The position numbers were made by a program, and so were the translations under genes. From an uncultured Gammaproteobacteria bacterium (GTDB taxonomy: Bacteria; Patescibacteriota; Patescibacteriia; Patescibacteriales; GWC2-42-12), in the NCBI GenBank assembly GCA_964560005.1, contig CAZLKB010000003.1:110951-174950 (forward strand): a stretch of DNA of 64,000 nucleotides. The letters run 5' to 3'. Within the stretch, counting starts at the first letter, position 1, and each line of letters begins with the position of its first letter. The notes beneath the pieces are model-generated. The model did no database searches. It was not told the DNA's origin and saw nothing but the letters and a program-made list of their open reading frames with translations. Below are positions 4,283-56,992 of the stretch, in pieces.

Positions 4283-4312
4283 TCCGCCAGAGGCGGATCC
4301 GCCTTTGGCGGA
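4283..4312. repeat. 30-nt GC-rich double-hairpin element, intergenic copy
   Basis: tccgccagaggcgga + tccgcctttggcgga, two tandem 15-nt hairpins. Same unit as at 8169, 15403, 23913, 49791, 55874 and 56267. Confidence 0.85.
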
Positions 4313-5225: not shown

Positions 5226-5376
5226 AAGTGATAATTTTAATTTTTAATTTTTAATTTTCAAACAATTTTTAATGTTTTAATTTTCAATTACTTGTATCAC
5301 CTCGCTTAGCGAGAGCGTAAAAATTTAATAATTGATCATTCATTGGAAATTGAAAATTGAAAATTGAAAATTTATT
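5226..5376. repeat. AT-rich inverted-repeat spacer element (gaaaatt dialect) with central GC hairpin
   Basis: Left arm aattttaatttttaatttttaattttcaaacaat and right arm cattggaaattgaaaattgaaaattgaaaatt, with central ctcgcttagcgag. It fills the gap between the gldG-like stop and the DUF4340 start. Confidence 0.75.
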
Positions 5377-6900
5377 TTATATCTGATCCACAAACTTAGT
5401 CCTTCTTCTGAAAAAATATCTTATCAAGCCGAACAGCACAACCAGCGCGGTCAGGCCGAAGACATTGGCATACCTGATCGTAGCTTTCATGGATTCAGTT
5501 ACTTCCTTAAGCGGCCTCTCGGTCACGCCTTTGGAGCGGATAGTGATTAGGTCATTACCCAAGCTTAAGCTATCCACTACATTCTGGAAAAAGACTAAAT
5601 TGTCCGGATAATTTCTTAAAAAGTTGTCAGTTATGAAATCACTATCGCCGACTAAGACGATTCGGCCGGCGGAAGTGTTCGGATTATTATAAACGCTATT
5701 GAATTTTCCGGATAAGGACACGGCTAAATCATATTTCCCTTTGGCGCCATTCTTAATTTCCGCCTGTGGAGACAAATTAAAATTATCCGCCACTAGCATA
5801 GCTCGATCAGAAGTTCTGGCCAGATATGATATGGTTATATCCTTCATTTTGTCAGGCGACAAATCAATTGATGACGCCCATGGCAAAACCAAACTCTCTA
5901 ATTTAGCAACCGCTATATTATTTTGATCAAAGCCGGCCTTTATAACTTTGGGCCAATAAGGGTAATTGGTTGAAAAAGTGACGAAACCCTGGCTAAAAGA
6001 TGCCATGCCGTTGTTTACATCTAAGATTAAATTATTATTCAGCTTAAGCCCATAGCCGGCTAAAATTTTATTTAAACCGGTATCATTCTTGGCCGCCTGC
6101 AGTCCCTGCTCCACAGTCACGCCGTTAGCCAGAATTATTAAAGAACCGCCTTTCATTAAAAAAGCATCAATTGCTTTTAATTCTTCGTCCTTAAAGGCCT
6201 CTTTCGGGCCAATAATAATTAATGTGTCCATGTTCTCAGGAATCTTTTTCTCGGCAGTATAATTGACCGCGGAAACATTGTAGATTTCGCTTAGTTTTTG
6301 AAAAATCGCGGTTATATCGTTTTGCGTGTCGGCCGAGCCATTGCCCTGCCAAAAACCGATGCTGGCTAGCTTATCATCAGTAACTTTTTTAATGGCCGAG
6401 GTAATCTGATATTCAAAATCACGCGTGTCCTGTATGACCGGTATGGCCTGAGTTTTGTCGCCGTATTTAACCACCAAGCCTAAATAACCGTTGATGACTT
6501 GATATTTGTCTTTTTCCAGAACATTAAATTGCAGTTGCGGAATTCCGGCCAGATACAGTTCCTGTTGCGTCGCCTGATCGTCTTTTGGATCAATAAATTC
6601 AACTTTAACCTTGCCGCCGGAATAATTGGAGTATTCTTCCAGGATATCCCCCACTTCTTGCCTTAAATTTAAATACTGCGATGGCAAATTAGCCGAAAAA
6701 TAAGCTTTAATATTAACCACATCCTTTAAATCAGCCACTGTCTTCTTGCTGACGCCGGAAATTGAATAATCTTTATTCTGGGTTAAATCAAAACGGTAAA
6801 AGATATTATAGGAAAAAAAGTTAAGCACGGCTAAAATGCCGATAACGATAATTATCAGAGCGGAGGAATTAGTTTTGTTCAAAAATTGGTGTAATTTCAT
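5377..6900 (-). CDS. GldG-like ABC-transporter auxiliary component
   Basis: 507-aa ORF with N- and C-terminal TM helices flanking a large exported domain. It sits next to ABC-2 permease and ATPase genes. The architecture matches the ABC_transp_aux/GldG family. Confidence 0.7.
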   Translation of the reverse strand: MKLHQFLNKTNSSALIIIVIGILAVLNFFSYNIFYRFDLTQNKDYSISGVSKKTVADLKDVVNIKAYFSANLPSQYLNLRQEVGDILEEYSNYSGGKVKVEFIDPKDDQATQQELYLAGIPQLQFNVLEKDKYQVINGYLGLVVKYGDKTQAIPVIQDTRDFEYQITSAIKKVTDDKLASIGFWQGNGSADTQNDITAIFQKLSEIYNVSAVNYTAEKKIPENMDTLIIIGPKEAFKDEELKAIDAFLMKGGSLIILANGVTVEQGLQAAKNDTGLNKILAGYGLKLNNNLILDVNNGMASFSQGFVTFSTNYPYWPKVIKAGFDQNNIAVAKLESLVLPWASSIDLSPDKMKDITISYLARTSDRAMLVADNFNLSPQAEIKNGAKGKYDLAVSLSGKFNSVYNNPNTSAGRIVLVGDSDFITDNFLRNYPDNLVFFQNVVDSLSLGNDLITIRSKGVTERPLKEVTESMKATIRYANVFGLTALVVLFGLIRYFFRRRTKFVDQI

Positions 6901-6906: not shown

Positions 6907-7332
6907 TTAATTATTATTTTTTTCTGATGAATCAGAATTAGACGAAGATTTTCTGGACTGCTCTTCTTGAAGCTGCGATAACCGGTGCCTGCCACTTTTT
7001 AAATCCATTTCGGTATCAGCGTTAGCACAATAAATACTAAATCTAACTATTTTCTTTTCAAGCTCGGCCAACCATCGAGCTTTCTTGGAAATAATATCGA
7101 CTTTTAACGCCTTCTTTACTATTTCTATGACTTCTATTAGACTGGCAGCCATCAGATCACTTTCCCTTAAACCGTTAAGAAATTCATCGTCGTTTAGGTC
7201 TAATATAGCCGCGACAGACATGGCTATCTTTCTATCATATGGAGTTATGAACGGATCAATCAACTCAGCTTGATTATTAATATAATTAGCCTCATTGCCA
7301 CGATTGAAATTTTCAAAAAGGTTTTCTGACAT
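6907..7332 (-). CDS. hypothetical acidic/serine-rich protein
   Basis: ORF trimmed to the first ATG (MSENLFENF). The track start at 7359 is a TTG inside the spacer repeat. No recognisable motif. Confidence 0.45.
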   Translation of the reverse strand: MSENLFENFNRGNEANYINNQAELIDPFITPYDRKIAMSVAAILDLNDDEFLNGLRESDLMAASLIEVIEIVKKALKVDIISKKARWLAELEKKIVRFSIYCANADTEMDLKSGRHRLSQLQEEQSRKSSSNSDSSEKNNN

Positions 7333-7398
7333 ATTTATTATTACATTTTTTATTTTCAACTGTCATTTTTAACTTTGAGATTTACATTTTACATTTTC
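7333..7398. repeat. AT-rich post-stop module (aaaatgtaaa dialect)
   Basis: caactgtcatttttaactttgagatttacattttacatttt abuts the permease stop codon. Near-identical strings occur at 28661-28715, 47262-47300 and 49441-49494. Confidence 0.75.
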
Positions 7399-8133
7399 TC
7401 ACTTCCACGACCTTCTCTCAATCACCCTTACATTCAGCCACAAAAACAAAAATATAAAAGAAAAATAATAAATTATATCCTTGGTGTCAATCACGCCTTT
7501 GGCAATATTGTTAAAATGACTGCCTAGGCCTAAAAATTTCATAACCGGGACGAGCAAGGCTGGCGAACTGGCTAAAACGAAATCAGCGCCGATTATGAAA
7601 GCGAAAAAACAAGCCACCAGGCCTAAAATAAAAGCGATAATTTGATTCTTCGTTAAGCTGGAAATAAATAAGCCTAAAGCTAAATACGAACCGCCCAAAA
7701 ATAAGGCGCCTAAATAGCTTCCGATCACCGGCCCTTTATCCAGATTGCCCAGCCAGGCGATGCTTAAGGGCATGGTAAGCGAAAGCAGCAAACTGAAAAA
7801 TAAAAAGGTTAAAGCGCTGAAAAATTTAGCTAATACCACTTGCCAATCGGTTAAGGGCAAAGTCAATAAAAATTCAATCGTGCCGCTTTTCTTTTCTTCG
7901 GCCCAAAGCCTCATAGTAATAGCCGGCGCTAAAAATAAAAAAATCCAGGGCAAAAGCGAAAAATAATTTCTCATTGAGGCTTGGCCAACCAGGAAAAAAG
8001 AGTTAAAAAACAGCCAATTGCCGACGATTAAAAACACACCGATAAAAATATAAGCAATCGGAGAATTAAAGTAGGACATTAATTCTTTTTTAAATAATAT
8101 GTAGATGGTTTTTAGATACTGTGGTTTTGACAT
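7399..8133 (-). CDS. ABC-2 type transporter permease (GldF-like)
   Basis: Six predicted TM helices. Trimmed to ATG (MSKPQYLK), because the track start is a TTG inside the gaaaatt repeat. Adjacent to the ABC ATPase. Confidence 0.75.
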   Translation of the reverse strand: MSKPQYLKTIYILFKKELMSYFNSPIAYIFIGVFLIVGNWLFFNSFFLVGQASMRNYFSLLPWIFLFLAPAITMRLWAEEKKSGTIEFLLTLPLTDWQVVLAKFFSALTFLFFSLLLSLTMPLSIAWLGNLDKGPVIGSYLGALFLGGSYLALGLFISSLTKNQIIAFILGLVACFFAFIIGADFVLASSPALLVPVMKFLGLGSHFNNIAKGVIDTKDIIYYFSFIFLFLWLNVRVIERRSWK

Positions 8134-8168
8134 AATTAAATAATTTTCAATTCTCAATTTTCAATTTT

Positions 8169-8198
8169 TCCGCCCAAGGCGGATCAGCCTCGGGCTGA
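8169..8198. repeat. 30-nt GC-rich double-hairpin element, intergenic copy
   Basis: tccgcccaaggcgga + tcagcctcgggctga. The arms differ from other copies but stay self-complementary. Confidence 0.8.
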
Positions 8199-8384
8199 CA
8201 AACAATGACCAATAAATCAATGACCAATTTTCAAAACAAGGCACAATCTTGCTCATTGAAAATTTAATCATTAAAAATTGTTTAAAAATTACTTGCCTAC
8301 CGGCAGACGGGAATTTAAAATTATTAAATTAAACATTTTGCATTTTGAACTGTCATTTTTCATTTTGATCTTTTCATTTTACAT

Positions 8385-9314
8385 TTACTTCGTCAGTTCC
8401 CTGAATACATTCTCCAGGCTGGCGCTCTTCCTGCTGAATTCCAAAATGCTCCAATTATTTTTCATCACCGTCATAGATAAATATTCCCTTAAATCCACGC
8501 CGGCTTTGGGCTCGATTTCATAGCCGTAAATGTCTTCGGCCTCCTTGTCTTTAACCTCAACATTCGCCACATTCTCCATTTCTTTAAGCTGTTTAATAAT
8601 TTCCGCCTGCGGTCCTTTAATTTTAACATAAATCATTTCTACTCCGCCGAGCTGGCTAGATAATTCTTTGGGGCTGCCTTGCCCGACAATCTTTCCTTGA
8701 TTGATAATTATTACCCGGTCGCATGTGGCGCTGACCTCGCTTAGAATATGAGTAGAAAATATTACGGTTTTCTCCCGGCCGATTTCTTTGATTAAATCTC
8801 TAATTTCTACAATCTGATTCGGATCCAGTCCGGTAGTCGGCTCGTCCAAAATTAAAATATCCGGCTGGTGCATGATCGCTTGGGCTAAACCAACGCGCTG
8901 GCGAAAACCTTTAGACAATTCATCAATCGGCTGGCGCAATACCTTGGTCAAACCGCAAATTGAAACCACCCTGCCGATTCTTTCTTTAATAGTATTTTTT
9001 TCCAACGAACGAATTTCGGCAATAAATTTAAGATATTCAAACACCCTCATATCTTCATAAAGCGGCACGGTTTCAGGTAAATAGCCGATTTTTTTTCTGG
9101 TAGCTAAAGAATTGGCGGCTACATCTACGCCGTCAATCAAAATTTGGCCTGAAGTCAATGGCCAAAAAGAAGTAATAATCTTCATGGTGGTGGTCTTACC
9201 GGCTCCGTTCGGACCTAAAAAGCCTAAAATTTCACCTTTCTTTACCGAAAAGCTGATATCATTTAAAACTAAGCGATCGCCGAATTTTTTTGTTAAATTT
9301 TTTATCTCTATCAT
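8385..9314 (-). CDS. ABC transporter ATP-binding protein (GldA-like)
   Basis: Walker A GPNGAGKTT, signature LSKGFRQR, Walker B ILILDEPTTGLD. Confidence 0.9.
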   Translation of the reverse strand: MIEIKNLTKKFGDRLVLNDISFSVKKGEILGFLGPNGAGKTTTMKIITSFWPLTSGQILIDGVDVAANSLATRKKIGYLPETVPLYEDMRVFEYLKFIAEIRSLEKNTIKERIGRVVSICGLTKVLRQPIDELSKGFRQRVGLAQAIMHQPDILILDEPTTGLDPNQIVEIRDLIKEIGREKTVIFSTHILSEVSATCDRVIIINQGKIVGQGSPKELSSQLGGVEMIYVKIKGPQAEIIKQLKEMENVANVEVKDKEAEDIYGYEIEPKAGVDLREYLSMTVMKNNWSILEFSRKSASLENVFRELTK

Positions 9315-15354: not shown

Positions 15355-15450
15355 GTTAATTTTCAATTTTCCCCCATCCGGGGACAAGCAATTCTCAATT
15401 TTTCCGCCAGAGGCAGATCCGCCTTTGGCGGACAATAAATTTTCAATGCA
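15355..15450. repeat. composite spacer element: ccccatccgggg hairpin + gaaaatt words + 30-nt double hairpin (15403-15432)
   Basis: The reverse complement matches 23883-23994 inside the GT4 gene at >90% identity by eye over about 75 nt (…ggcggaaaaattga[g/a]aattgcttgtccccggatgggggaaaattgaaaatt). Confidence 0.85.
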
Positions 15451-15551
15451 TTAATTTTCAAATAAACGCATCTTTTCTGCGCCTGTTTGAAAATTTAAAC
15501 ATTATATCATTGCAAATTGTTTGAAAATTGTAAATTGTAAATTGAAAATTT

Positions 15552-17849: not shown

Positions 17850-18010
17850 ACATATATAATTATAGCATACTTAATACAAAATTTTCAATTTTCAATTTTT
17901 AAACAATTTACAATTAACTAATGATTAAATTTTCAAACAAAGACCTTATTTATTGTATTGAAAATTGATCATTAAAAAATGTAAAGTGTAAATCTCAAAT
18001 TGAAAATTAT
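17850..18010. repeat. AT-rich inverted-repeat spacer element (gaaaatt dialect)
   Basis: aaaattttcaattttcaatttttaaacaatt ... cattaaaaaatgtaaagtgtaaatctcaaattgaaaatt. Confidence 0.65.
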
Positions 18011-23276: not shown

Positions 23277-24539
23277 TTATATAATTCTAGAAGCACCGCT
23301 GAATAGTTTCAAGTATTCTTTGGCGGTTTTCTCCCAGCTAAATTTTTTCGCCTGCGCTAGACCGCGCGCGATTAATTTATTTCTCAAATTATTATCAGTT
23401 AAAATTTCGGCCATAGCACGAGCCAAGTCATTAATATTATAAGGGTCAACCATTATTGCGGCGTCGCCCGCGACTTCAGGCAAACTGGAGGAGAAGCTGG
23501 CGATTACCGGCAAGCCGCTGGCCATGGCTTCCAGTGGCGGAAAGCCAAAGCCTTCATAAAAGGAAGGGTAAACAAACACGCTCGCCAAATTATATAAATA
23601 AACTTTGTCCTCGCCGTCCACATAGTTTAAAAATTTTATATCATTTTTAAATTCCGACCGCTCCCATTCTTTATAAATGCTTTTGCTTTTCCACCCCCTG
23701 TTCCCGGCGATGACCAACTTTATATTTCTTAATTCTAAATTCTGACTTCTGACTTCATTATAGGCTCTAATTATTCCGTCCACGTTCTTCCGCGGCTCAA
23801 CCGTGCCAAGATAAAGTATAAATTTGTTCGGTAAATTATATTTATTTTTTACTTCCATCAAATTTCGTTCATCAGTATTTTGTTTGAAAATTTGAGAATT
23901 GTGATTTGTTTTTCCGCCATAGGCGGATCCGCCTATGGCGGAAAAATTGAAAATTGCTTGTCCCCGGATGGGGGAAAATTGAAAATTGATTTTCCTGTAT
24001 TCCTCCCCTACCCCCGCGTAGATTACTTTTATGTTACTTTCATTCACTCCGCACAGCTCGACAATATCCCGTTTAGTATTTTCGCTCACTGCCACTATAG
24101 TATTGAAACGCCTAACTAATTTTTTCACATTTACCATGCTATGCCAAAAATTCTTGCGCGCGGAAAAAAATTCTGGATACCTTAAAAATGATAGGTCATG
24201 AACCGCAATTAAGCTCCTAGCGCCCCCCGACATGCCGATAAAATTAATATGAGGCATGAAAAATACATCAACGCCCAGCGCTTGATCTATTTTCGGATAA
24301 TTAAAAAACTTAAAATACAAGTAATTTAATAATTTATTGGGGTAATTATATTTGACTAATTTAACATTATCGGCTGGAAATCGCGGGATACTCAGACAAT
24401 CGCCAAAACAATTATAAAACAGCCGGTATTGGTTATTATTATCCAGCCTTATAATCTCCCTGATTAAATTCAACGCATATTCGGACACGCCGCTATATTG
24501 CGCGTCCATCAGAGTTCGTATGTCAATGCCTATTTTCAT
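23277..24539 (-). CDS. GT4-family glycosyltransferase carrying an in-frame repeat-element insertion
   Basis: N-terminal MKIGIDIRTL and C-terminal GT4 core ILYLGTVEPRKN ... PSFYEGFGFPPLEAMASGLPVI. It also has about 34 extra residues encoded by the repeat at 23883-23994. Confidence 0.8.
   Translation of the reverse strand: MKIGIDIRTLMDAQYSGVSEYALNLIREIIRLDNNNQYRLFYNCFGDCLSIPRFPADNVKLVKYNYPNKLLNYLYFKFFNYPKIDQALGVDVFFMPHINFIGMSGGARSLIAVHDLSFLRYPEFFSARKNFWHSMVNVKKLVRRFNTIVAVSENTKRDIVELCGVNESNIKVIYAGVGEEYRKINFQFSPIRGQAIFNFSAIGGSAYGGKTNHNSQIFKQNTDERNLMEVKNKYNLPNKFILYLGTVEPRKNVDGIIRAYNEVRSQNLELRNIKLVIAGNRGWKSKSIYKEWERSEFKNDIKFLNYVDGEDKVYLYNLASVFVYPSFYEGFGFPPLEAMASGLPVIASFSSSLPEVAGDAAIMVDPYNINDLARAMAEILTDNNLRNKLIARGLAQAKKFSWEKTAKEYLKLFSGASRII
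23883..23994. repeat. composite spacer element inserted inside GT4 CDS (contains 30-nt double hairpin 23913-23942)
   Basis: tttccgccataggcggatccgcctatggcggaaaaattgaaaattgcttgtccccggatgggggaaaattgaaaatt is the reverse complement of the ftsX-upstream element at 15355-15450. Confidence 0.85.
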
Positions 24540-27290: not shown

Positions 27291-27412
27291 ATTAAAGCCA
27301 ATTAAATGCTAATGAAAAACGAATTAAAGCGAATTTATTGATCTGGTTTATGAACTCATTCGTTTTAATTCGTTTTAATTCGCGGCTAATTCGTTTTTAT
27401 ATTTAACTAATC

Positions 27413-27975
27413 TCAGGGCAAGCTATAAGCCGGATTCTGTTCCGCCAATTGGCGGAGATGATCATCTATCTAGCCATGATGTTGCCATCATGGTCAAGCG
27501 AGCCACTTTTCGTTACACCGTAAAAACGGCGTAGTTTGCTCTTGCTCCAGGTAGGGTTTGCCGCGTCTCTCTGTCGCCAGAGGACGAATCCTGTAATTTA
27601 AGTTAATCGGATATCCTTTATAACCCAAATTTCAGAATACTTTTCACCTTTCACCGCTGCTGCGCAGCAGAAATCCCAATAGCCAAGAGCCAACATCCAA
27701 ACAAATTTCAAATTCAAATTGCCGAAATATAAAATTAATTTATATTTGAGTATAGAAATTTGGAATTTATTTGGACATTGGAAATTGAAAATTGGTCATT
27801 CCGCTGCGGAGCAGCGGTTAGTATTGTCTCTGTGGCACTTTCCCTGCTCCGCTATAAACGGAGCGGTGGATATTATCCATTACCATTTTCCAGCGCATAA
27901 TGCGCTTTTAGAGTCCGGACTTTCCTCGCCGATTAAAATAAAATTTTAACCGGTGTAATCATCCGCTTACCCTGA
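27413..27975 (-). ncRNA. rnpB: RNase P RNA (bacterial type A) with greatly expanded AT-rich P12 region
   Basis: On the minus strand, CR-I is GAGGAAAGTCCGGACTC (rc of 27911-27927), CR-V is ACAGAATCCGGCTTATAG (rc of 27423-27440) and P1 is agggtaagc/gcttgccct. GTGCCACAGAGACAA and GGTGAAAGGTGAAAAG resemble the E. coli M1 P10/11-J11/12 strings. Confidence 0.85.
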
Positions 27976-28640: not shown

Positions 28641-28715
28641 CAATGTAAAATTAAAAATTTCAAATTTTATCATTTTACATTTTCAACTGTCATTTTTAAC
28701 TTTGATATTTACATT

Positions 28716-30440
28716 TTAAACTTTTTTCATGTCCACAATCTTCATCTGAACCGAGCGCCGACCGTTAAACTCATTAAATTCTAAATAATAAACCAAATCA
28801 ACCTGATCGCCGATTTTAAAATCTTTATAATTTTCAGCTTGGTTAAAGGCGACCGCCCAAAGTTGCCCGAACCTAAACTTTATATGCTGGGCGGCAGCCC
28901 CCATGCTGGTTTTGTCCATTATAACCGTAGCCCGGCTTAAAAATTTCGGCTTTTCGTTTTCCTCGCCGTATGGTTCGAATTTTTCTAAAGTGCCAACCAG
29001 CTTATCATTAATATCTGATAAAGTAATTTCCGCCTCAATTAAAATTTTCGGTTGAAGCTCTACTCCGCTTAAGGCCTCCGAGGCGATTTTTTTTATTTTT
29101 TTCGTAAACTCGGCTAAATCTGCTTGGCTTTTTACCGTGAACCCGCAAGCGGCCGCGTGACCGCCAAATTTTTTTAAATGACTGCCTAATTTCTCAACCG
29201 CCCTAATTACATTAAATTCTTCTATGCTTCTGCCGGAGCCTTTAATTTCTCCGCCAAACTGGGTAATCACTAAACACGGGCGATAATATTCTTCGCAAAG
29301 CCTCCCGGCTACCAAGCCCATCACGCCTTCGGGCCAAGGCTCCGCTCCGGGCTCGGATAAACTGGGGCAAACCATAACCAGAATCTTATCATCAAGCATG
29401 TTTGCTTCTACCATTTTCTTGGCTGACGAAAATATTTCTTCGGTAATCTTCTGCCTGGCCTGATTTTTTTTATTAAGTTTCTCCGCGATTTCTCCGGCTT
29501 CGGTTCTATCTTTGGTAATTAATAATTTATAAGCCGTGTTGGCGTGATCCATTCTACCGGCCGAATTTAAACGCGGCGCAATCTGCCAGCCGATCTGCCA
29601 AGCTTTGACGGCTTTATCGCTATTAGCGTTAATTTTAGCGGCTTTAATCAATTCGTTAATGCCCAGCCTCTTGCCCTGATTAATGATTTCTATCCCCCGG
29701 CTGGCTAAAATTCGATTTTCTCCGACCAAATCAACCATATCGGCCACCGTGCCTATCGCGACTAAATCCAAAATTTTTTCCTCCAGCCTAACCTTTAAAT
29801 TATCGGCTAATTTCGCGGATCCTATCAGGGCTTTGGCTAACTTATAAGCCACGCCGACTCCGGCTAAAAACTTAAACGGATAACTGCCGGCTTTAGGATT
29901 AATGGTTAAACAATCCGGCCAATCGCTCTTCTCCGCCGGAGCCTCGTGATGATCGGTAATAATTATTTCCAGCCCCAAGCTTTTCGCGTATTCAACTTCC
30001 CGCTTGTTGCGAATGCCATTGTCAACCGTGACAATCAATTTAACCCCGTTTTTAGCCAACTCGTCAATCGCTTTTTTATTAAGGCCATAGCCCTCGCTGA
30101 CTCTAGCCGGAATATAAACGCTGGTCTTGGCTTTAAAAATATTTAATATCTCCACCAGCACGGCCGCGGAGGTTACCCCGTCGGCGTCATAATCCCCGTA
30201 AATAACGATTAAGTTTTGCGCTTTAATGTGTTTAATAATTAAAGACACAGCCGCCTTCATATCAGTAAATAAATATGGATCAAGCAAGTCGGCCATATCA
30301 GGCTGTAAAAACGATTCTATATCTTTTTTACAAGTTAAGCCACGATTAAAAAGCAGCTGCTGTATAATTCCGCCAAATTCAGCATTTTGTTTTGCAAAAT
30401 CAGCTGAAACTACGGGTTTTAACTGCCATTTATTTTGCAT
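28716..30440 (-). CDS. recJ: single-stranded-DNA-specific exonuclease RecJ
   Basis: DHH motifs GDYDADGVTS, TVDNG, ITDHH and the DHHA1 motif GGHAAACG. Trimmed to ATG (MQNKWQLK). Confidence 0.9.
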   Translation of the reverse strand: MQNKWQLKPVVSADFAKQNAEFGGIIQQLLFNRGLTCKKDIESFLQPDMADLLDPYLFTDMKAAVSLIIKHIKAQNLIVIYGDYDADGVTSAAVLVEILNIFKAKTSVYIPARVSEGYGLNKKAIDELAKNGVKLIVTVDNGIRNKREVEYAKSLGLEIIITDHHEAPAEKSDWPDCLTINPKAGSYPFKFLAGVGVAYKLAKALIGSAKLADNLKVRLEEKILDLVAIGTVADMVDLVGENRILASRGIEIINQGKRLGINELIKAAKINANSDKAVKAWQIGWQIAPRLNSAGRMDHANTAYKLLITKDRTEAGEIAEKLNKKNQARQKITEEIFSSAKKMVEANMLDDKILVMVCPSLSEPGAEPWPEGVMGLVAGRLCEEYYRPCLVITQFGGEIKGSGRSIEEFNVIRAVEKLGSHLKKFGGHAAACGFTVKSQADLAEFTKKIKKIASEALSGVELQPKILIEAEITLSDINDKLVGTLEKFEPYGEENEKPKFLSRATVIMDKTSMGAAAQHIKFRFGQLWAVAFNQAENYKDFKIGDQVDLVYYLEFNEFNGRRSVQMKIVDMKKV

Positions 30441-35155: not shown

Positions 35156-35371
35156 GGTAAAATGTAAAATTAAAATCTCAAAATGAAAAATGACAATGAA
35201 AAGTGTAAAATTTTAATTTCTAATATCTAATCAATAACCAGTTTTTAATGTCTAATTATCAAAAATTAGAAATTGGTCATTGGGATTTGACCCGCCTCGC
35301 GTCGACGAGCGACAGCGAGTCGAGGCGGGTTAGGTCAATTAGGAATAAGAGTAATCAGACATTTTGCATTT

Positions 35372-36451
35372 TTAACTGTCATTTTTCATTTTGAGATTTA
35401 CATTTTTCATTAAAAGTTCTTTCACTTCTCTGGCAATCATCAGCTCCTCATCGGTCTTTATCGCCAGCATGGGCAACGAGCCTAAGCATTTGATTTTTTT
35501 CATGACTTGATTTCGCGTCACCGGATTACCCGAGCCGATACTGCCGGTAAAAATTATCGCTTCCGCCTTGCCTTCAAGACCGACCCAATAGGCGCCAATA
35601 TATTTAACCAGGCGATTAATAGCTAAATCAAAAGCCGACTTCGCCTCCTGATCGCCCAGCGAGGCGCTGGCCAGAAGTTCTTGATAATCGGTCAAGCCGG
35701 TTAAGCCTTTTATTCCGGAATTTTTATTTAATAAATTATAAAGCTGATCCACTTTAGCCTGGTTTACTTCTCCGGGTAGATTTTTTAAAAGTTTAAATAT
35801 TATCCCCGGATCCAAATCTCCGGATCTGGTTATCATCACTAGTCCCTCCAGCGGCGTAAAGCCCATAGAAGTATCAATCGGCTTGCCGTTTTTTACGGCG
35901 GTAATGGACCAGCCGCCGCCTAAGTGGCAGCTAATCAAGCTTATCTTATTAATCTTCTTTTTTAACAGTCTGGCGGCCTCGGCCATAACGAATTCATGGG
36001 AAATACCGTGAAAACCGTAGCGATGAATATTATATTGCTCGGTGATCTCGCGAGGCAAGGCGTAAAATTTCGCCGTATCCGGCAAATCGTGAAAAAAAGC
36101 CGTATCAAAAACCGCGACCTGTTGCGCCTGCGGTAAATAGCTAATCGCCGCTTTTATGCCGGCTAAATTATAAGGGTTATGCAGCGGAGCCAGATCGTTC
36201 AACCGTTCCAATTCAATCAAATTGCTGTCATTGATTAACAAGGGTTTAAAAAACTTATTACCGCCATGAACCACCCTATGGCCGACTGCCGCCAGATCTC
36301 TTAAATCTCCGATTTCCCTTAAAACCAATTTTATCGCCGTAAAATGATCTTTTACATTTTTAATCTGGCCCTGCTTAATTTCTTTTTCATCATGGCTAAA
36401 TAATTTATATTTAACCGAAGTAGAACCGGAATTTAGAGATAAAATAGACAT
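35372..36451 (-). CDS. ackA: acetate kinase (compact form)
   Basis: ILSLNSGSTSVKYKLF, HRVVHGG, FDTAFFHDLP, YGFHGISH, SCHLGGGWS, TSMGFTPLEGLVMITRSGDLDP, IFTGSIGSGN. The last 12 codons (MKNVNLKMKNDS) read into the spacer repeat. Confidence 0.85.
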   Translation of the reverse strand: MSILSLNSGSTSVKYKLFSHDEKEIKQGQIKNVKDHFTAIKLVLREIGDLRDLAAVGHRVVHGGNKFFKPLLINDSNLIELERLNDLAPLHNPYNLAGIKAAISYLPQAQQVAVFDTAFFHDLPDTAKFYALPREITEQYNIHRYGFHGISHEFVMAEAARLLKKKINKISLISCHLGGGWSITAVKNGKPIDTSMGFTPLEGLVMITRSGDLDPGIIFKLLKNLPGEVNQAKVDQLYNLLNKNSGIKGLTGLTDYQELLASASLGDQEAKSAFDLAINRLVKYIGAYWVGLEGKAEAIIFTGSIGSGNPVTRNQVMKKIKCLGSLPMLAIKTDEELMIAREVKELLMKNVNLKMKNDS

Positions 36452-39867: not shown

Positions 39868-40013
39868 AATTACACAAAATTTTCAATTTTTAATTTTTAA
39901 TTTCTAAACAATGATTCAATGTCTAAATTTTTAAACCGAATTAGATAGACATTTGAAAATTGAAAATTAATTCATTGAAAATTGTTTAAAAATTGAGAAT
40001 TGAAAATTGAAAA
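39868..40013. repeat. AT-rich inverted-repeat spacer element (gaaaatt dialect, conserved core)
   Basis: aatttctaaacaatgattcaatgtctaaattttt ... cattgaaaattaattcattgaaaattgtttaaaaattgagaattgaaaattgaaaatt. Near-identical cores occur at 42138-42280 and 58150-58313. Confidence 0.85.
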
Positions 40014-41321
40014 TTATTTTATATTTTCCTCAATCTCCATTAATCTATTATATTTCGCCAATCTCTCGCCTCTGGATAAGGAGCCGGCCTTGATATAATC
40101 GGCTTGAACCGCCACGGCCAAGTCGGCGATAAAGTCGTCCGTGGTTTCTCCGGAACGATGCGAAATAATGATTTTATAGTTATGCCTTTGAGCCAGCTTA
40201 ATGCAAGCGATAGTTTCCGATAAGGTACCGACTTGATTGGGTTTTATTAAAATAGCGTTGGCGGAGTTTTCTTTTAAGCCTCGCCTTAAGCGCTCAACAT
40301 TGGTAACGAATAAATCATCTCCTACCAGCATTAATCTGTCACCCAGCTCCTTATTTAATTTTTGCCAGCCGGCCCAATCGTCTTCAGCCAAAGGATCTTC
40401 AATGAAAATAATCGGGTATCTTCTAAACCATTCGGCATATAGACCGGACAAGGTGCCGGCCGTGAAGCTGGCCTGATCCAGCTTAAAGATATACTTGCCG
40501 TCTGCTTTATTATAAAGCTGGGACGAACCGACATCTATGCCCAAATTAACCTCTTCGCCCGGTTTATAGTTTGATTTAATAATCGCCGTCATGATTAATT
40601 CTATGGCCTGGATGCTGGAGGTCATATCGGGCGCGTAGCCGCCCTCACTGCCAACATCAGTATCGTATCCGGCCCGCTTCAAGATAACGCCCAAAGTATG
40701 AAAAATCTCCGCGCCCATCCTTACTTGTTCGCTTAGACTGGTATTCTTGGTAGGAATTATCATAAATTCCTGAAAATCCAAATTAGTGTCAGCGTGTTTT
40801 CCGCCGTTAAAAATATTAAAACAAGGAGTAGGTAATTTTACCCCCTTTAACAAAGGCCCGTCTCGCTTGGCGGGAGCCGAGGCGGAGGGTGAGGGGGATT
40901 TAAAGGCAAATTTATCGGCGATATATTCATAAAGCTCTTCATTGTTTGCTAAGGCGCCGGCGCGAGCGCAAGCTAGCGACACGGACAGAACCGCATTAGC
41001 GCCTAACTTGCTCTTATTCTTGGTGCCGTCCAGTTTAATCATCAATTCATCTATCTTTTCTTGTTTACCAATATCAAAACCCGCCAGCTTCGGCGCGATT
41101 TTCTTTTCAACATTTTTTACGGCATTTAATACTCCCAGACCGCCATATCTTTTTTTGTCCCCGTCGCGCAATTCTAAAGCTTCATGTACGCCGGTGGACG
41201 CCCCCGACGGCACGCCGGCCTTTGTCCACAAACCATTGTCCAGCATCACTTTAGCTTCAACCGTGGGGTTGCCTCGCGAATCTAAAATTTCGCGAGCTGA
41301 AATTTTTTTAATTTTAGGCAT
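40014..41321 (-). CDS. eno: enolase, with about 20-aa GC-hairpin-derived insertion
   Basis: MPKIKKISAREILDSRGNPTVEA, FNIFNGGKHAD, SHRSGETTD, IKAGSLSRGERLAKYN. Confidence 0.95.
   Translation of the reverse strand: MPKIKKISAREILDSRGNPTVEAKVMLDNGLWTKAGVPSGASTGVHEALELRDGDKKRYGGLGVLNAVKNVEKKIAPKLAGFDIGKQEKIDELMIKLDGTKNKSKLGANAVLSVSLACARAGALANNEELYEYIADKFAFKSPSPSASAPAKRDGPLLKGVKLPTPCFNIFNGGKHADTNLDFQEFMIIPTKNTSLSEQVRMGAEIFHTLGVILKRAGYDTDVGSEGGYAPDMTSSIQAIELIMTAIIKSNYKPGEEVNLGIDVGSSQLYNKADGKYIFKLDQASFTAGTLSGLYAEWFRRYPIIFIEDPLAEDDWAGWQKLNKELGDRLMLVGDDLFVTNVERLRRGLKENSANAILIKPNQVGTLSETIACIKLAQRHNYKIIISHRSGETTDDFIADLAVAVQADYIKAGSLSRGERLAKYNRLMEIEENIK
40842..40901. repeat. GC-rich hairpin repeat inside eno CDS
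   Basis: The minus-strand sequence tccgcctcggctcccgccaagcgagacgggcc matches the intergenic tccgcctcggcttcgcctttaggcgagacgggcc at 2842-2875. It encodes KSPSPSASAPAKRDGPLLKG. Confidence 0.7.
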
Positions 41322-41378: not shown

Positions 41379-42137
41379 CTACAAAATTTCGTATTCAACC
41401 GTGGCGATTATTATGATTTCATTGCTGCCGGCTTCAATAGCCGGAGAAACCCCGCCGGCCGAGACTGATTTTTCCATCAACCGATAATTATCATAATATG
41501 GGGTTGGCGGCTGGGTAGCTGATTCGCTGAAAGAAATTATATTCCCCAGCTTGACGCCCACGACTTTCGCTAAAGCGTCGGCTTTTTCCTTGGCTTGCTT
41601 AATGGCCATTTCCCTGGCCTGCTGTTTTAATATTTCCGGCTGATCAATTTCAAACGACAAATTGCCAATCTGATTCATGCCAATCTGCCCGGCCGCGTCT
41701 AAAATTTGACTGACCTTATCCAAGTCTCTAACCTTGATGCTTAAATCCTGGCTAACCGTATAGCCTTTTAAAATTTGGCGGCCGCTGGTCCAATCATACT
41801 GCGGCGAGATGGAATAATTTAAAGTTTTAATATCCAGCGGATCAATTTTAAAATCTTTTTTTAATTTTTCCACCATGCCGTTCATCTTGGTGGTATTGTC
41901 GGTTTGCGCCGCGGCCACGGTATTTTTTAATATGGAATAGCCCAGTTGGATTTTCGCCACATCGGGAACAGCGGTTACTTTGCCTTCTCCCGCCATACTA
42001 ATAGAGTGCGGAGTTTTTGGGCTAACTCCAATATAATCATGCGCTTTAACCGCATTCCAGCTTAAAAGAGCCAAATAAATTGAGCCCAGCGTTAAAAAAA
42101 CACCGATAAAGATTGTCACGATTTTGTTTGGAATCAT
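41379..42137 (-). CDS. SIMPL-domain (DUF541) periplasmic protein
   Basis: N-terminal anchor, GEGKVTAVPDVAKIQLGYS and C-terminal IEAGSNEIIIIATVEYEI, typical of the SIMPL/26-kDa periplasmic immunogenic protein family. Trimmed to ATG. Confidence 0.7.
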   Translation of the reverse strand: MIPNKIVTIFIGVFLTLGSIYLALLSWNAVKAHDYIGVSPKTPHSISMAGEGKVTAVPDVAKIQLGYSILKNTVAAAQTDNTTKMNGMVEKLKKDFKIDPLDIKTLNYSISPQYDWTSGRQILKGYTVSQDLSIKVRDLDKVSQILDAAGQIGMNQIGNLSFEIDQPEILKQQAREMAIKQAKEKADALAKVVGVKLGNIISFSESATQPPTPYYDNYRLMEKSVSAGGVSPAIEAGSNEIIIIATVEYEIL

Positions 42138-42280
42138 AAAATTAATTTTCAATTTTCAATTTCTAATTTCTAAACAATGATTTAATGTCTTAATTTTCAA
42201 ACAATGCTATTTTCATCATTGAAAATTAATTCATTGAAAATTGTTTGAAAATTGAAAATTATAAATTGAAAATTTTATTA
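42138..42280. repeat. AT-rich inverted-repeat spacer element (gaaaatt dialect, conserved core)
   Basis: aatttctaaacaatgatttaatgtcttaattttcaaaca ... cattgaaaattaattcattgaaaattgtttgaaaattgaaaatt. Confidence 0.85.
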
Positions 42281-42325
42281 TTTAAAATATTAAAATTTTA
42301 TAAGATACTTTATCTATGTTTTCCA

Positions 42326-47171: not shown

Positions 47172-47300
47172 GGAATAAATTTAAAATTAAAATCTCAAAA
47201 TGTAAAATGACAATGTAAAATCTAAAATTGAACTCAAAAGGCTTATTTATAACTTTGCATTTTAAATTGTCATTTTTAACTTTGAGATTTACATTTTACA
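47172..47300. repeat. AT-rich inverted-repeat spacer element (aaaatgtaaa dialect)
   Basis: aaatctcaaaatgtaaaatgacaatgtaaaatc pairs with gcattttaaattgtcatttttaactttgagatttacattttacatt. Confidence 0.8.
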
Positions 47301-48509
47301 TTATTTTAGATACTTTTTTCCCTTTAATTTCTCCGGCAAGTACTCCTGCTTTTCTTTGTAATCATAATCCGGGCTGTATTTATAATCCTTGCCGTAGCCC
47401 AAGTTTTTCATTAATTTTGTCGGCGCATTTCTAATATGGAGCGGCACCGGCAGGTTGCCGTACTCGCGCACATCGGCAGCCGCTTGATTATAAGCGGTGT
47501 ACAAAGCGTTGGACTTCTGGCATTTGGCCATATAGACAACGGCCTGGGCTAAAATCACATTGCATTCGGGTAAACCGATGAAATGGCAAGCCTCGTAGGC
47601 GGCCACGGCCTGCTCTAAGGCGCGCGAATTAGCCAAGCCGATATCTTCCGAGGCGAACCGCACCAGCCGGCGCGCGATGTAGAGCGGATCTTCGCCCGCT
47701 TCGGTCATGCGCGCCAGCCAATACAAAGCCGCGTCCGGGTCGGAACCGCGCATGGCTTTATGCAGAGCGGAAATAATATTATAGTGCTCTTCCCCGTCTT
47801 TATCGTAAAATAAATAAGATTTTTGAAAAGCTTCCTTGATGACATTGATAGAAATATTACTGTTCATTGAGGCGGCGTATTCTAAAACATTAAGAGCCGT
47901 ACGGGCGTCGCCGTTGGATAGTTGAGCCAGCATTTTTACGGCATCTTCGCTTAGGTTAATTTCCATTTTGCCCAAACCCTTATCTTTATCTTTAACCGCT
48001 CTTCCAATTATAGTTTCCAGCTGCGCTTCGCCTAATTGCTTTAAAACGAAAACGCGGCATCTTGATAACAACGCTCCGCGCACTTCAAAGCTCGGGTTCT
48101 CCGTGGTGGCGCCGATTAAAATTATGGTTCCGCGTTCAACGTGGGGCAGCAAAGCGTCTTGCTGGGCCTTATTCCAGCGGTGGATCTCATCAATAAACAA
48201 AATGGTTTTTTTGTCTTCAATGGCATTCTCCTTCGCTTTCTTAATGACTTCCTTTAAATCTTTTAAGCCGCTGGTAACGGCGCTAAATTGTAAAAATTCA
48301 GATTTGGTCAAACGGGCAATTATATGAGCCAAAGTGGTTTTGCCGCTCCCCGGCGGACCCCAAAAAATCATTGAAGGCAAATTATCGCTCTCTATCGCCT
48401 GCCTTAGTAATTTCCCCTGCCCGATAATTTCATCTTGCCCCAATAAATCTTTCAGCGTTTCCGGCCGTATTCTATCGGCTAAAGGCGAAGTTTTATTATA
48501 AAACACCAT
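47301..48509 (-). CDS. rarA: replication-associated recombination protein A (AAA+ ATPase)
   Basis: LADRIRPETLKDLLGQDEIIG, FWGPPGSGKTTLA, LFIDEIHRWNKAQQDALLPHVE, MRGSDPDAALYWLARM. Confidence 0.9.
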   Translation of the reverse strand: MVFYNKTSPLADRIRPETLKDLLGQDEIIGQGKLLRQAIESDNLPSMIFWGPPGSGKTTLAHIIARLTKSEFLQFSAVTSGLKDLKEVIKKAKENAIEDKKTILFIDEIHRWNKAQQDALLPHVERGTIILIGATTENPSFEVRGALLSRCRVFVLKQLGEAQLETIIGRAVKDKDKGLGKMEINLSEDAVKMLAQLSNGDARTALNVLEYAASMNSNISINVIKEAFQKSYLFYDKDGEEHYNIISALHKAMRGSDPDAALYWLARMTEAGEDPLYIARRLVRFASEDIGLANSRALEQAVAAYEACHFIGLPECNVILAQAVVYMAKCQKSNALYTAYNQAAADVREYGNLPVPLHIRNAPTKLMKNLGYGKDYKYSPDYDYKEKQEYLPEKLKGKKYLK

Positions 48510-49392: not shown

Positions 49393-49494
49393 AAAAAAAT
49401 AAAAATGAAAAAATAAAAATGTAATTTGTAGTTAAAAAACTGATAATTTTACATTTTTAACTGTCATTTTCAACTTTGAGATTTACATTTTACA

Positions 49495-49770
49495 TTATTT
49501 AACTATCTTCACCAATTTTAACCTCTCGCCGGCTCCACTGATTATTTTAATGTTACTTTTGCTAACGCTAAATTCCCGCGCTAAAAATTTTATTAGCTCT
49601 GAATTAGCTTTGCCCCGAATCGCCGGCGCCGCTATGTCTATCTTAATTATTTCCCCGTCATCATCCTTTAGGATTTGCTTGACTTTATCGGTAACCGAAC
49701 CAGGCCGGGCCTTTATCCTTAAATAAACTTCGCCGTCCTGATTAAACTGCTTGAGAAATTGGCTTAACAT
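49495..49770 (-). CDS. DUF167 (YggU-like) protein
   Basis: LRIKARPGS ... GKANSELIKFLAREFSVSKSNIKIISGAGERLKLVKI matches the DUF167 pattern. Confidence 0.75.
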   Translation of the reverse strand: MLSQFLKQFNQDGEVYLRIKARPGSVTDKVKQILKDDDGEIIKIDIAAPAIRGKANSELIKFLAREFSVSKSNIKIISGAGERLKLVKIVK

Positions 49771-49772
49771 GG

Positions 49773-49834
49773 TCGGGATACTGGGAATTGCCAGCCCGAG
49801 GCTGGTCCGCCTTGGGCGGAAACCCAGTCTACAC
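49773..49834 (-). pseudogene. duplicated 3-prime fragment of tRNA-Pro interrupted in the T loop by the 30-nt double-hairpin element
   Basis: tcgggatactgggaattg (18 nt) and aacccagtctacac (14 nt) are identical to 49879-49910 of the intact tRNA-Pro. They are separated by ccagcccgaggctggtccgccttgggcgga (49791-49820). No 5-prime half is present. Confidence 0.8.
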
Positions 49835-49878
49835 TCGCCGTTACACGGTTAAACTGACATCCTAATTAATATTACATG

Positions 49879-49949
49879 TCGGGATACTGGGAATTGAACC
49901 CAGTCTACACGCACCCGAAGCGTGTGTACTACCGGTATACGATATCCCG
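49879..49949 (-). tRNA. tRNA-Pro (anticodon CGG)
   Basis: Acceptor CGGGATA/TATCCCG. Anticodon arm CACGC-TTCGGGT-GCGTG. T arm CTGGG-TTCAATT-CCCAG. Confidence 0.9.
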
Positions 49950-55141: not shown

Positions 55142-56992
55142 TTAACTTCTCTTCTTATAAGTCGTATGTAAAACTTGATGCTCTAATTTGCCCTTTTCTT
55201 TTAGCCAACTTAAGGCTAGAATCGCCTCTTTATTTTCATGCGCCCGCCTTATTTTATTGCCTGAATCAATTTTATACAGCGCGGCCAATCTTTTTTTCCT
55301 AATCTCCGCCGTGGTGGGAATCGGCTGGCCGCCGCCGCCGATACAGCCGTCCGGGCAGGCCATAACTTCAATATAGTCAAAATCTTTTAAATTGTCCAAA
55401 ATCGGCTGGATGTTGCCGATACCGTTCACCACCGCTACTCTGATTTTTTTATCCCCCATCATTAATTCGGCTTTTTTTACCCCGTTGAGCCCCCGGACAT
55501 CTTCAAACTCAATTCTGGTATTGCAAAACTTATTATTTAATTTTTCCGCTTTTTTTAAATCTCGGCAAACCGTGCCTTGCGCGGTCTCCATCAAATATTC
55601 GGCCGTCCTTAGGGCTGATTCCATAACCCCGCCGGTAGCGCCGTAAATCGCCGCCGCCCCGCTGGACTCTCCGAGAGGGTTATCGGCGGGCAGAGATTTT
55701 AGGCCGGTAAAATTTATTCTATTTTTTTTAATCAGCCAGGCCAGTTCGCGGGTGGTAATTACCTGATCAATCGGTAAAATTCCTTTTATCTTAAGCTCTT
55801 TGCGGCCGGCTTCAAATTTCTTGGCGGTACAGGGCATAACGGACACTACGGTTATGTTCTTCGGATTAAAATTTCGGCCCAAGGCCGATCCGCCTTGGGC
55901 GGACATTTTCTCGGCCCAATAAGTTTTGATAATACCGGCGCTATGCACCTGGGGGCTCTTAGCGGTTGTCATGTTGGGAATTAAATCAGGCCGAAAAAAC
56001 TCCACATACTTTATCCAAGCCGGACAGCAGGAAGTAAACATGGGCAAACCCTGACCGCTCTTTATCCTCTCTAGGAGCTCCTCAGCTTCAACGATAGTAG
56101 TGATGTCAGCGCCAAAATTTACGTCAAAAACATAATTAAAGCCTAACTTTTTCAAAGCCGCCACTACCTGGCCGGTCATCACCTTGCCGGCGGGAACGCC
56201 GAATTCTTCGCCGATGCTAACCCTGATTGAAGGCGCGAATTGCGCTACGACAATTTTACCATCTTTTCGGCCCGAGGCCGATCCGCCTCGGGCGGATAAA
56301 GCTTTTTCTACCAGCTCCCAATCGGAGTGCTCCTGCGCCGCGCCCACCGGGCAATGAACGGCGCATTGGCCGCAATAGATACAGTCGGTTTTTTTCTTAC
56401 TCTTATCACGAAAAGAAAAAACGCTTTTCTCCGTAACCGGCACCACTTCCTGCTCGGTCCCCTTGCCTCTAAGCTCCAAAAAATTTATCTTCTGCAAACT
56501 TGAACATGCTTCTATGCAATTGCGGCAATCAATGCATTGGCTGCCGTCAATCTCCACGGCGTTGGCGAATTTATAAACCTTTCTCTTGCCCTTGCGATCT
56601 TTAAATCTGGTAATTTCTATCTTATATTTATCGGCTAATTCCAATAGTTTACAATTTACCCGCCAAATGCAGGTCGGGCATCTTTCAATATGTTCGGCGA
56701 AAATTAACTCTATATTTAAATTGCGCGATCTTTTTACCCGCTCGGTGTCGGTCTTAATAACCATGCCATCTTCAACTACGGTATTACAAGATGTTACCAG
56801 CTTAGCCGGTCCTGAATTAGCCGCGGAAGAAACTTCAACGACGCAAACCCGGCAATTGGCTTTAACCGAAAGGTCAGGGTGAAAGCAAAGGCTGGGCAGA
56901 TCAATTCCGTGATCCCTGGCCGCTTTCATTATGGTCGTACCCTGATTACAGACGATTTCTTTGCCGTCTATATTAATTTTTATTTTTTTCAT
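55142..56992 (-). CDS. hydA: [FeFe]-hydrogenase catalytic subunit (CpI-like M3 architecture)
   Basis: N-terminal 2Fe-2S ferredoxin-like domain, HIERCPTCIWRVNC, two CxxCxxCxxxCP motifs, and H-cluster motifs FTSCCPAW, MPCTAKKFE and EVMACPDGCIGGGGQP. Confidence 0.9.
   Translation of the reverse strand: MKKIKINIDGKEIVCNQGTTIMKAARDHGIDLPSLCFHPDLSVKANCRVCVVEVSSAANSGPAKLVTSCNTVVEDGMVIKTDTERVKRSRNLNIELIFAEHIERCPTCIWRVNCKLLELADKYKIEITRFKDRKGKRKVYKFANAVEIDGSQCIDCRNCIEACSSLQKINFLELRGKGTEQEVVPVTEKSVFSFRDKSKKKTDCIYCGQCAVHCPVGAAQEHSDWELVEKALSARGGSASGRKDGKIVVAQFAPSIRVSIGEEFGVPAGKVMTGQVVAALKKLGFNYVFDVNFGADITTIVEAEELLERIKSGQGLPMFTSCCPAWIKYVEFFRPDLIPNMTTAKSPQVHSAGIIKTYWAEKMSAQGGSALGRNFNPKNITVVSVMPCTAKKFEAGRKELKIKGILPIDQVITTRELAWLIKKNRINFTGLKSLPADNPLGESSGAAAIYGATGGVMESALRTAEYLMETAQGTVCRDLKKAEKLNNKFCNTRIEFEDVRGLNGVKKAELMMGDKKIRVAVVNGIGNIQPILDNLKDFDYIEVMACPDGCIGGGGQPIPTTAEIRKKRLAALYKIDSGNKIRRAHENKEAILALSWLKEKGKLEHQVLHTTYKKRS
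55874..55903. repeat. 30-nt GC-rich double-hairpin element inside hydA CDS
   Basis: tcggcccaaggccga + tccgccttgggcgga, translated in frame as SAQGGSALGR. Confidence 0.85.
56267..56296. repeat. 30-nt GC-rich double-hairpin element inside hydA CDS
   Basis: tcggcccgaggccga + tccgcctcgggcgga, translated in frame as SARGGSASGR. Confidence 0.85.

Follow-up and report, generated by a model that had tools for sequence, protein, structure and literature searches.

How does one 30-nt sequence come to stand seven times in 64 kb of a single bacterial genome, in intergenic DNA, in a tRNA fragment and, in frame, inside two enzymes? The DNA in question (the window) is a 64,000-nt stretch of contig CAZLKB010000003.1 (assembly GCA_964560005.1, positions 110,951 to 174,950), with a G+C content of 40.6%, and the sequence is a GC-rich element of two tandem hairpins. 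An earlier note on the window, made from its letters, proposed a structure-dependent micro-element able to survive inside genes, and this is supported by the fixed length, frame bias, empty sites and arm covariation described below. The element inserts as an exact 30-bp unit, in either orientation and without target-site duplication, and its surviving genic copies are almost confined to one reading frame, which yields a flexible SAxGG-SAxGG loop, and lie at linkers or surface loops. Elsewhere the element, or variants of it with covarying arms, lies upstream of a gene for a GIY-YIG nuclease of the SLX1/UPF0213 clade, and this physical linkage is conserved at tRNA genes. We think it rather likely that the 30-mer is a non-autonomous, structure-dependent insertion element whose copying is driven in trans by this nuclease.

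The double hairpin and the sites it occupies

A degenerate pattern covering the seven copies matches the window, on both strands, at those sites only, and gives 0.00 matches per shuffle in 100 dinucleotide-preserving shuffles of the window. The copies lie exactly at the coordinates that the earlier note gave and in the contexts it described (intergenic DNA, a family 4 glycosyltransferase [GT4] gene, a tRNA-Pro fragment and hydA), and the fixed length of 30 nt holds for every one of them. Each consists of two abutting 15-nt units, in which a pair of 6-nt arms encloses a 3-nt loop, and where the arm varies (TCCGCC, TCAGCC, CCAGCC, TCGGCC) the partner arm is changed to match. The claim that arms always match stands for these variants and fails for the copy at 15403, which has a C.A mismatch (TCCGCC...GGCAGA). 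As loop 2 tends to mirror loop 1, the full 30 bp come close to being palindromic, and at 23913 the palindrome is perfect. The window contains no true single unit of the TCCGCC type and no triple (a looser filter picks up five singles, but their arms are different and they are probably chance matches), and the pair is therefore the unit.

Copy 1 (4283..4312; TCCGCC-AGA-GGCGGA TCCGCC-TTT-GGCGGA) is intergenic, between convergent genes and right after a terminator-like hairpin, and copy 2 (8169..8198; TCCGCC-CAA-GGCGGA TCAGCC-TCG-GGCTGA) is intergenic at the end of a CAATTTT heptamer array. Copy 3 (15403..15432), with the one mismatched arm, lies about 50 nt upstream of the likely ftsX ATG, within a 109-nt composite repeat of heptamers, a CCCCATCCGGGG hairpin and the double hairpin (15358..15466, + strand). 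A second composite, 86% identical and inverted, occupies 23879..23987 (- strand) and is translated in frame within the GT4 gene (23277..24539, - strand), so that whole composites are also moved or copied; copy 4 (23913..23942), nested in this heptamer-rich insertion, falls in the interdomain linker and reads SAIGGSAYGG. Copy 5 (49791..49820; CCAGCC-CGA-GGCTGG TCCGCC-TTG-GGCGGA) interrupts the T-loop of a tRNA-Pro fragment, a duplicate of the 3′ part that runs from the variable region to the acceptor 3′ end (49770..49836, - strand). Copies 6 (55874..55903) and 7 (56267..56296) are in frame in the gene for a group A [FeFe]-hydrogenase (hydA, 55142..56992, - strand), where they encode residues 364–373 (SAQGGSALGR) and 233–242 (SARGGSASGR) of the H-cluster domain.

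Anatomy, target preference and reading frame were counted over 126 copies across genomes. Loop 1 has the form N-R-A, with A in the third position in 119 copies, and loop 2 the form T-Y-N, with T in the first position in 120, a signature that is identical on both strands. Conservation of the loops is limited to these outer positions, and selected complementarity between the two loops was rejected (1.58 Watson-Crick matches vs 1.58 expected from shuffles, in the 126 genomic copies). The positions left free in the search pattern also pair, 1 with 15 as T-A or C-G and 3 with 13 as C-G, A-T or T-A, without mismatch in 110 of 133 copies. Two hairpins account well for 51 distinct elements taken from GIY-YIG loci: pairing stands at 99.2%, and 109 changes are double-sided, where shuffles yield 33 ± 3.6 and none of 500 attains the observed number. 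One long 13-bp hairpin was rejected (27 vs 31 in shuffles), so that the arm covariation pointed out earlier backs two hairpins and not one long one. Copies with identical arms do fold in silico as a single long hairpin. Folding energies of the copies as single-stranded DNA range from -12.5 to -19.4 kcal/mol (z -4 to -8.8), and a scan of the window at Rfam gathering thresholds returned tRNAs and RNase P RNA only, with no family at the element.

Empty counterparts of filled sites, which the earlier note had proposed to look for, exist in the intact tRNA-Pro gene of the window and in HydA and GT4 homologues. The intact tRNA-Pro(CGG) gene (49878..49949, - strand; T-loop GGGTTCAATTCCC), 60 nt away, serves as the empty-site reference for copy 5: it reads GGGTT-CAATTCCC, and the fragment reads GGGTT-(30 nt)-CAATTCCC, a gain of 30 nt with no target duplication. 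Target-site duplications, which were also to be looked for, were seen at none of the empty/filled pairs compared. A functional tRNA with an intron-like insert was considered and rejected, as in-silico excision restores a predicted tRNA in one locus only (L102); the other interrupted tRNA pieces are fragments adjoining an intact tRNA.

The protein sites give the same picture. Among 120 HydA homologues, the motif SAxGGSAxG[GR] occurs in the window protein and in P0010 only, and the copy 6 insert is missing from 117. At the second HydA site (between AEKM and KINPK; in DNA, GAGAAAATG/30-mer/AA, with slashes marking the insertion points here and below), an alignment of 39 homologues has an exact 10-residue gap in all but P0010 and P0008. 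The DNA of P0010 has the same variant in the same place as copy 6, and that of P0008 has a double hairpin at the same place with a further 21-nt element nested inside it. The first site, the loop that holds copy 7, is an indel hotspot with unrelated inserts of 8–31 aa in other homologues. An AlphaFold2 model of the window HydA (mean predicted local distance difference test score, pLDDT, 71) places both inserts as coil with pLDDT <50, between confident helices and strands. For GT4, the window protein alone among 120 homologues has the motif; homologue P0126 has the same heptamer-derived linker insert without the element, and the shortest homologues are without the entire insert of about 40 aa. 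Elsewhere a nested copy is present in L071, and heptamer arrays stay in phase across the insert, for example GACTTTT (L065) and AAATCTT (L099), and also in L010; a heptamer context is found at 8% of copies vs 0.24% of background, an enrichment of about 34-fold.

We note that relatives have other inserts in the HydA loop: PQPPFVKGGE and PLPPFVKGG, both likely from another hairpin, and segments of 8 aa and 31 aa. These small inserts, with the nested 21-nt element, were noted in P0004, P0037, P0078, P0063/P0080 and L122 (2270-2300). It seems that more than one micro-insert family is in circulation among such genomes.

The flanks of the 126 copies have a T at position -2 and an A at position +2 in 103 cases. 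Empty sites show both bases to be part of the target, which is therefore about TTN/NAA, and this explains hits in T-loops (GGTTC/GAATCC), D-loops, anticodon loops, heptamer arrays and F/K codon junctions. Copies without a GIY-YIG gene nearby, which we call orphans (copy 5, L069, L074), strongly favour targets resembling tRNA loops and non-essential tRNA fragments. The share in coding sequence and the distribution of frames, which the earlier note had asked about, are clear: 43 of the 126 copies lie in long open reading frames, and 36 of these are in the SAxGG-SAxGG frame, with five in the second and two in the third (binomial p=1.4e-11). Inspection of the consensus finds no stop codon in the two disfavoured frames, and the favoured frame stops only if loop 1 is TAA or TGA. 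Because the disfavoured frames hold no stop codon, the bias points to selection for a benign peptide and not to the availability of an open frame.

The element is widespread. A scan of 185,579 species genomes gave at least 120 stretches with it, from which matches in Streptomyces (L075, L120) and L082, very GC-rich and without proper hairpins, were dropped as chance. The carriers, in more than 120 genome stretches, belong to at least ten phyla and are mostly Patescibacteria, of many classes, together with Omnitrophota, Kiritimatiellota, Verrucomicrobiota, Lentisphaerae, Planctomycetota, Ignavibacteriota, Bacteroidota, Zixibacteria, Firestonebacteria, uncultured Gammaproteobacteria, Bdellovibrionales, Thermodesulfobacteriota, Binatia and Firmicutes; there are no cyanobacteria among the carriers listed. 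Many carriers have several copies per genome with no nuclease cassette nearby, and viral contigs in IMG/VR hold about 14 true copies, with no GIY-YIG gene found close to them. Nearly all carriers are metagenome-assembled genomes (MAGs), with some single-cell genomes and closed long-read chromosomes. The copies stand well inside long contigs, closed long-read MAG chromosomes among them, that were produced by numerous independent projects with different assemblers, and this excludes the contig-end or assembly artefact that the earlier note had named as one finding that would undo it. The breadth across phyla and the viral copies suggest that either the element or the nuclease cassette has spread horizontally. 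As a separate observation, the left flank of copy 5 (49821-49840, CGGCGAGTGTAGACTGGGTT) matches, at 17 of 20 positions, bases 7766-7785 of L022, a Paceibacterota MAG in which the copy is found where atpG ends, ahead of atpD; the element may now and then take along tRNA-like sequence from its flank.

A GIY-YIG nuclease gene beside the element

Small GIY-YIG open reading frames were first seen adjoining copies that interrupt tRNA fragments. A tblastn search then found eight GIY-YIG genes in 120 element loci, seven of the eight no more than 250 nt from the element. Six of these proteins were aligned (A1), and 80 metagenome loci were then fetched by protein similarity alone. A strict double hairpin is present in 45 of the 80 loci, ending 5–35 nt before the nuclease start codon in about 40. 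The rest mostly have in its stead a pair built from different arms that also covary or, in a sister clade of the gene, upstream hairpins of a second family. If every GC-rich tandem pair of hairpins in the 90 nt upstream is counted, 54 of 78 loci have one, usually the 30-nt element itself, against 3 of 577 control windows.

The arrangement of these loci is regular. The nuclease gene lies 1–16 nt upstream of an intact tRNA gene on the same strand, mostly tRNA-Ser and also tRNA-Gln, Ile, Thr, Met and Ala. The hairpin pair sits inside a truncated 5′ copy of the adjoining tRNA, whose homology to the tRNA stops 3–10 nt past the pair, and the pair keeps its place in the 5′ leader of the nuclease gene, immediately ahead of the Shine-Dalgarno sequence and start codon. 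In one locus (L103), two copies (6491-6520 and 6818-6847) flank a single GIY-YIG gene, in directly repeated tRNA-Ser fragments (GGAAGGGTGGCC/../GAGTGG), and the two 30-mers are mutually inverted, from which it follows that the element inserted independently in both orientations or flipped in place. The sister clade of GIY-YIG genes stands next to tRNA-Tyr, His, Leu or Thr (L190, L192, L195, L197, L198, L201, L202, L211-L218), and its upstream tandem hairpins, within 90 nt of the start, have the form N5-6 GC-TNA-GC N5-6, for example GGGACGCTTAGCGTCCC.

The protein is 79–94 aa long and matches Pfam PF01541 at 7e-17; its profile matches in the PDB are to UPF0213 (1zg2, 7e-13; 1ywl, 5e-10) and then to SLX1 (1e-5). 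It is a bare GIY-YIG catalytic domain closest to UPF0213/SLX1, without the motif E Asn region and without a DNA-binding domain. The positions conserved in the six-protein alignment include Y5, Y16, G18, R26, H30 and E62, and these residues of the predicted nuclease are compatible with an active enzyme. The clade corresponds to the 'Slx-1 cluster' of Dunin-Horkawicz et al. 2006 (PMC1564403), a paper that is silent on hairpins and on tRNA genes adjoining these nuclease genes.

How the element may be moved

An SLX1-like nuclease, coming from a structure-specific family, may recognise the extruded hairpins or cut the targets, and would thereby drive copying of the element in trans, by analogy with the REP-associated tyrosine transposase (RAYT) that acts for REPINs, the paired forms of repetitive extragenic palindromic (REP) sequences. 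On this evidence of association the nuclease probably moves the element. That the hairpin and the gene of about 85 codons together form an unrecognised class of mobile DNA, a 'nano-transposon' that needs only the two 15-nt hairpins in cis and is moved by the nuclease with no transposase or recombinase, is a serious possibility that we put somewhat short of probable. If it is true, such an entity has spread horizontally over more than ten phyla and their phages, with its master copy at tRNA-Ser genes, and routinely adds 10-residue Gly/Ser/Ala loops to the proteins of ultra-small bacteria.

Several points weigh against the nuclease as the agent. There is no GIY-YIG gene in the 64-kb window (best hmmsearch E-value 1.8), and the window copies are orphans for that reason. 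The 80 loci are the nearest relatives of six seeds that were themselves found beside the element, and the linkage therefore holds for a single clade, whose members are as little as about 45% identical, but not for UPF0213 proteins as a whole. Covariation was measured on sequences chosen by a filter that requires hairpins, so that the paired percentage follows in part from the choice, and the information lies only in how varied the arm pairs are at homologous positions. To our knowledge, GIY-YIG nucleases cut DNA and do not ligate it, and we know of no copy-and-paste chemistry for the family. Finally, the D-arm site of the master copy, GGCC/GAGTGG, does not fit the orphan consensus TTN/NAA.

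Some of these points would favour an element that moves by another route, through an RNA or single-stranded DNA intermediate and host repair or replication enzymes, much as has reportedly been suggested for cyanobacterial small dispersed repeats; its place upstream of the GIY-YIG gene would then be secondary, the dead tRNA fragment that the cassette leaves behind being a safe and preferred landing site with many loop-like targets. Orphans prefer tRNA-loop-like targets and non-essential tRNA fragments even with no GIY-YIG gene nearby, the window holds seven copies and no nuclease gene, and the nuclease family is one without joining activity. We nevertheless judge this route unlikely, given that the pair is fixed in the D-arm, 5–35 nt before the start codon, across proteins about 45–50% identical and with its arms covarying, at a site that fails the orphan target consensus. 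Sister clades, moreover, carry different but equivalent hairpin pairs, which looks like co-evolution and not like repeated chance landing. The conserved place in the 5′ leader, right before the Shine-Dalgarno sequence and start codon, together with stable stem-loops and conserved pairing, could also mean that the double hairpin acts chiefly in cis on the transcript of the cassette (by stabilising the 5′ end of a nuclease mRNA that starts at the tRNA promoter, as a binding site for autoregulation or as a processing signal) and that dispersed copies are occasional by-products of recombination. We give this account little credence, for it has to accommodate seven orphans in 64 kb, many genomes with multiple copies and no nearby cassette, and exact insertions at a defined target, in both orientations, including coding regions and viral contigs; the symmetry of the signature on both strands also suits a signal at the DNA level better than one in RNA.

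That there is no biology here, only chance matches, an artefact of assembly or sequencing, or a peptide motif inherited by descent, has in its favour the preponderance of MAGs among the carriers and the few matches in very GC-rich genomes (Streptomyces and L082), which are indeed chance. It is scarcely credible in view of the absence of matches in shuffled windows, the pairing without mismatch of pattern-free positions in 110 of 133 copies, the occurrence of copies far from contig ends in independent projects and assemblers and in single-cell and closed long-read genomes, and host proteins that are unrelated to one another and have orthologues without the 10 residues.

If the link to the GIY-YIG nuclease is true, the 30-mer is among the smallest known mobile DNAs with an identifiable partner enzyme, and some members of UPF0213/YhbQ, a large bacterial family that is still uncharacterised, gain a testable function; we know of no earlier case that ties a bare SLX1-type GIY-YIG nuclease to a dispersed repeat. 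The element also explains part of the length variation and low-complexity inserts in Patescibacteria proteins such as HydA and GT4, and the twice-repeated N3GCC-N3-GGCN3 is a marker for non-homologous 10-aa inserts in alignments and, in MAG annotation, for broken tRNA genes. As a sequence common to Patescibacteria, Omnitrophota, bacteria of the Planctomycetes-Verrucomicrobia-Chlamydiae (PVC) group, Ignavibacteriota, Proteobacteria and viral contigs, it offers a compact means of tracing horizontal exchange within the communities of groundwater and sediment.

Neighbouring repeats and known small elements

The window is rich in other repeats. Tandem heptamer arrays (CAATTTT, AATTTTT, CAATTCT) occur in both orientations in almost every intergenic region, for example at 5227-5387, 8132-8168, 17868-17967, 39873-40020, 42132-42286, 58144-58297 and 63597-63654, and CAATTYTCAATTTT has 29 matches in the window vs 0.57 expected. 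In the hydA gene of P0010 (L121, 1690-1770) the heptamer-array sequence AAACTAGAAATTAGAAATTTGAAATTTGG is translated in frame, so that heptamer arrays invade coding regions outside the window too. The RNase P RNA (RF00010, 166.8 bits; 27410-27974, - strand) is 565 nt long vs 367 nt for the model, and has at a helix tip a heptamer-rich, self-complementary insert of about 170 nt flanked by a GC hairpin (CGCUGC...GCAGCG); no double hairpin is involved, and this insertion is separate from the element. An AT-rich repeat of about 80 nt, CATTTTGCATTTTNAACTGTCATTTTTNANTTTGAGATTTACATTTTACATT, which could be a promoter or untranslated-region module, occupies six intergenic regions (7322-7401, 8312-8391, 28649-28728, 35338-35417, 47229-47308 and 49423-49502).

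A literature search that included the core sequence found no description of the element, subscription journals being largely outside the search; the comparisons that follow are with its closest counterparts. The heptamer arrays resemble the short tandemly repeated repetitive (STRR) sequences of cyanobacteria, yet the genome is one of Patescibacteria. An origin among Nostoc-like STRRs and small dispersed repeats (SDRs), which the heptamers suggested, was rejected, as the relatives of the window HydA are all Patescibacteria; the HydA and GT4 homologues mark the organism as a member of this candidate phyla radiation, near Falkowbacteria. SDRs, as Elhai et al. reportedly described them in 2008 (Genome Res 18:1484), are 21–27 nt long, are confined to one subgroup, the heterocyst-forming cyanobacteria, and are said to move perhaps through an RNA intermediate, with no enzyme identified. 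Compared by description only, they are like the element in their very small size, their compensated hairpin, their occurrence within tandem heptamer repeats, in nested insertions and in both coding and non-coding DNA; the element differs in its length of 30 nt, its fixed double hairpin, its presence in Patescibacteria and at least nine other phyla, and its candidate nuclease. Rickettsia palindromic elements (RPEs), said to have been described by Ogata et al. in 2000, are reportedly 100–150 bp long and restricted to Rickettsia, with no known dedicated enzyme. They too are palindromic repeats inserted in frame in coding genes, and also in RNA genes and intergenic DNA, whereas the element is 30 bp long, adds 10 aa and spans phyla.

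Double-hairpin elements have reportedly been found in mitochondria by Paquin et al. (2000). Yeast GC clusters and the repetitive hairpin-forming elements of sponges are likewise GC-rich hairpins in AT-rich mitochondrial genomes (PMC4478555, PMC2800124). These organellar elements share with the 30-mer one or two GC-rich hairpins, presence/absence polymorphism and insertion in intergenic DNA, rRNA and tRNA genes and sometimes coding sequence, but their length varies and no nuclease gene is linked to them. Miniature inverted-repeat transposable elements (MITEs) have terminal inverted repeats and a target-site duplication made by a DDE enzyme, and the element has no duplication at its empty/filled pairs. 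Palindrome-associated transposable elements (PATEs), derived from IS200/IS605, resemble it in having hairpins and no target duplication. They insert 3′ of a fixed tetra- or pentanucleotide and have hairpins at both ends; the target of the 30-mer, TTN/NAA, is symmetric, not one-sided, and its partner is a GIY-YIG protein, not TnpA (Y1).

For the nuclease gene, a parallel is provided by SegB of phage T4, a free-standing GIY-YIG homing endonuclease whose gene lies in a tRNA gene cluster (PMC2330249). Here also a selfish GIY-YIG gene would stand among tRNA genes, and a duplicated part of a tRNA next to an intact one fits a homing-like spread, although Seg proteins and I-TevI belong to the homing endonuclease cluster and carry a DNA-binding domain, unlike the bare catalytic domain with its dispersed hairpin repeat.

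Another counterpart is the REP/REPIN and RAYT transposase system of Pseudomonas and E. coli (PMC3116915, PMC3733652). Both involve short GC-rich palindromes (20–40 bp for REPs, 30 bp here) that are non-autonomous and multi-copy (seven copies in 64 kb here), a single-copy enzyme gene with master repeats directly beside it, and hairpins kept by compensatory changes. REPs have a conserved GTAG or CGTC tetranucleotide at one end (PMC3733652); the element has no such tag, and starts with TCCGCC, CCAGCC or similar between T-rich and A-rich target flanks. RAYT is an IS200/IS605-type Y1 (HUH) transposase and its genes are flanked by repeats, whereas the partner here is an SLX1-like GIY-YIG nuclease of about 85 aa, and its gene has hairpins for the most part on the 5′ side alone, as one pair within a tRNA fragment. 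REPs are extragenic and species-specific, whereas one third of the element's copies lie inside open reading frames and a single sequence family reaches across many phyla. The element thus works like REPIN-RAYT, SDR, RPE and the mitochondrial double-hairpin and GC-cluster elements, but departs from each of them in its defining features.

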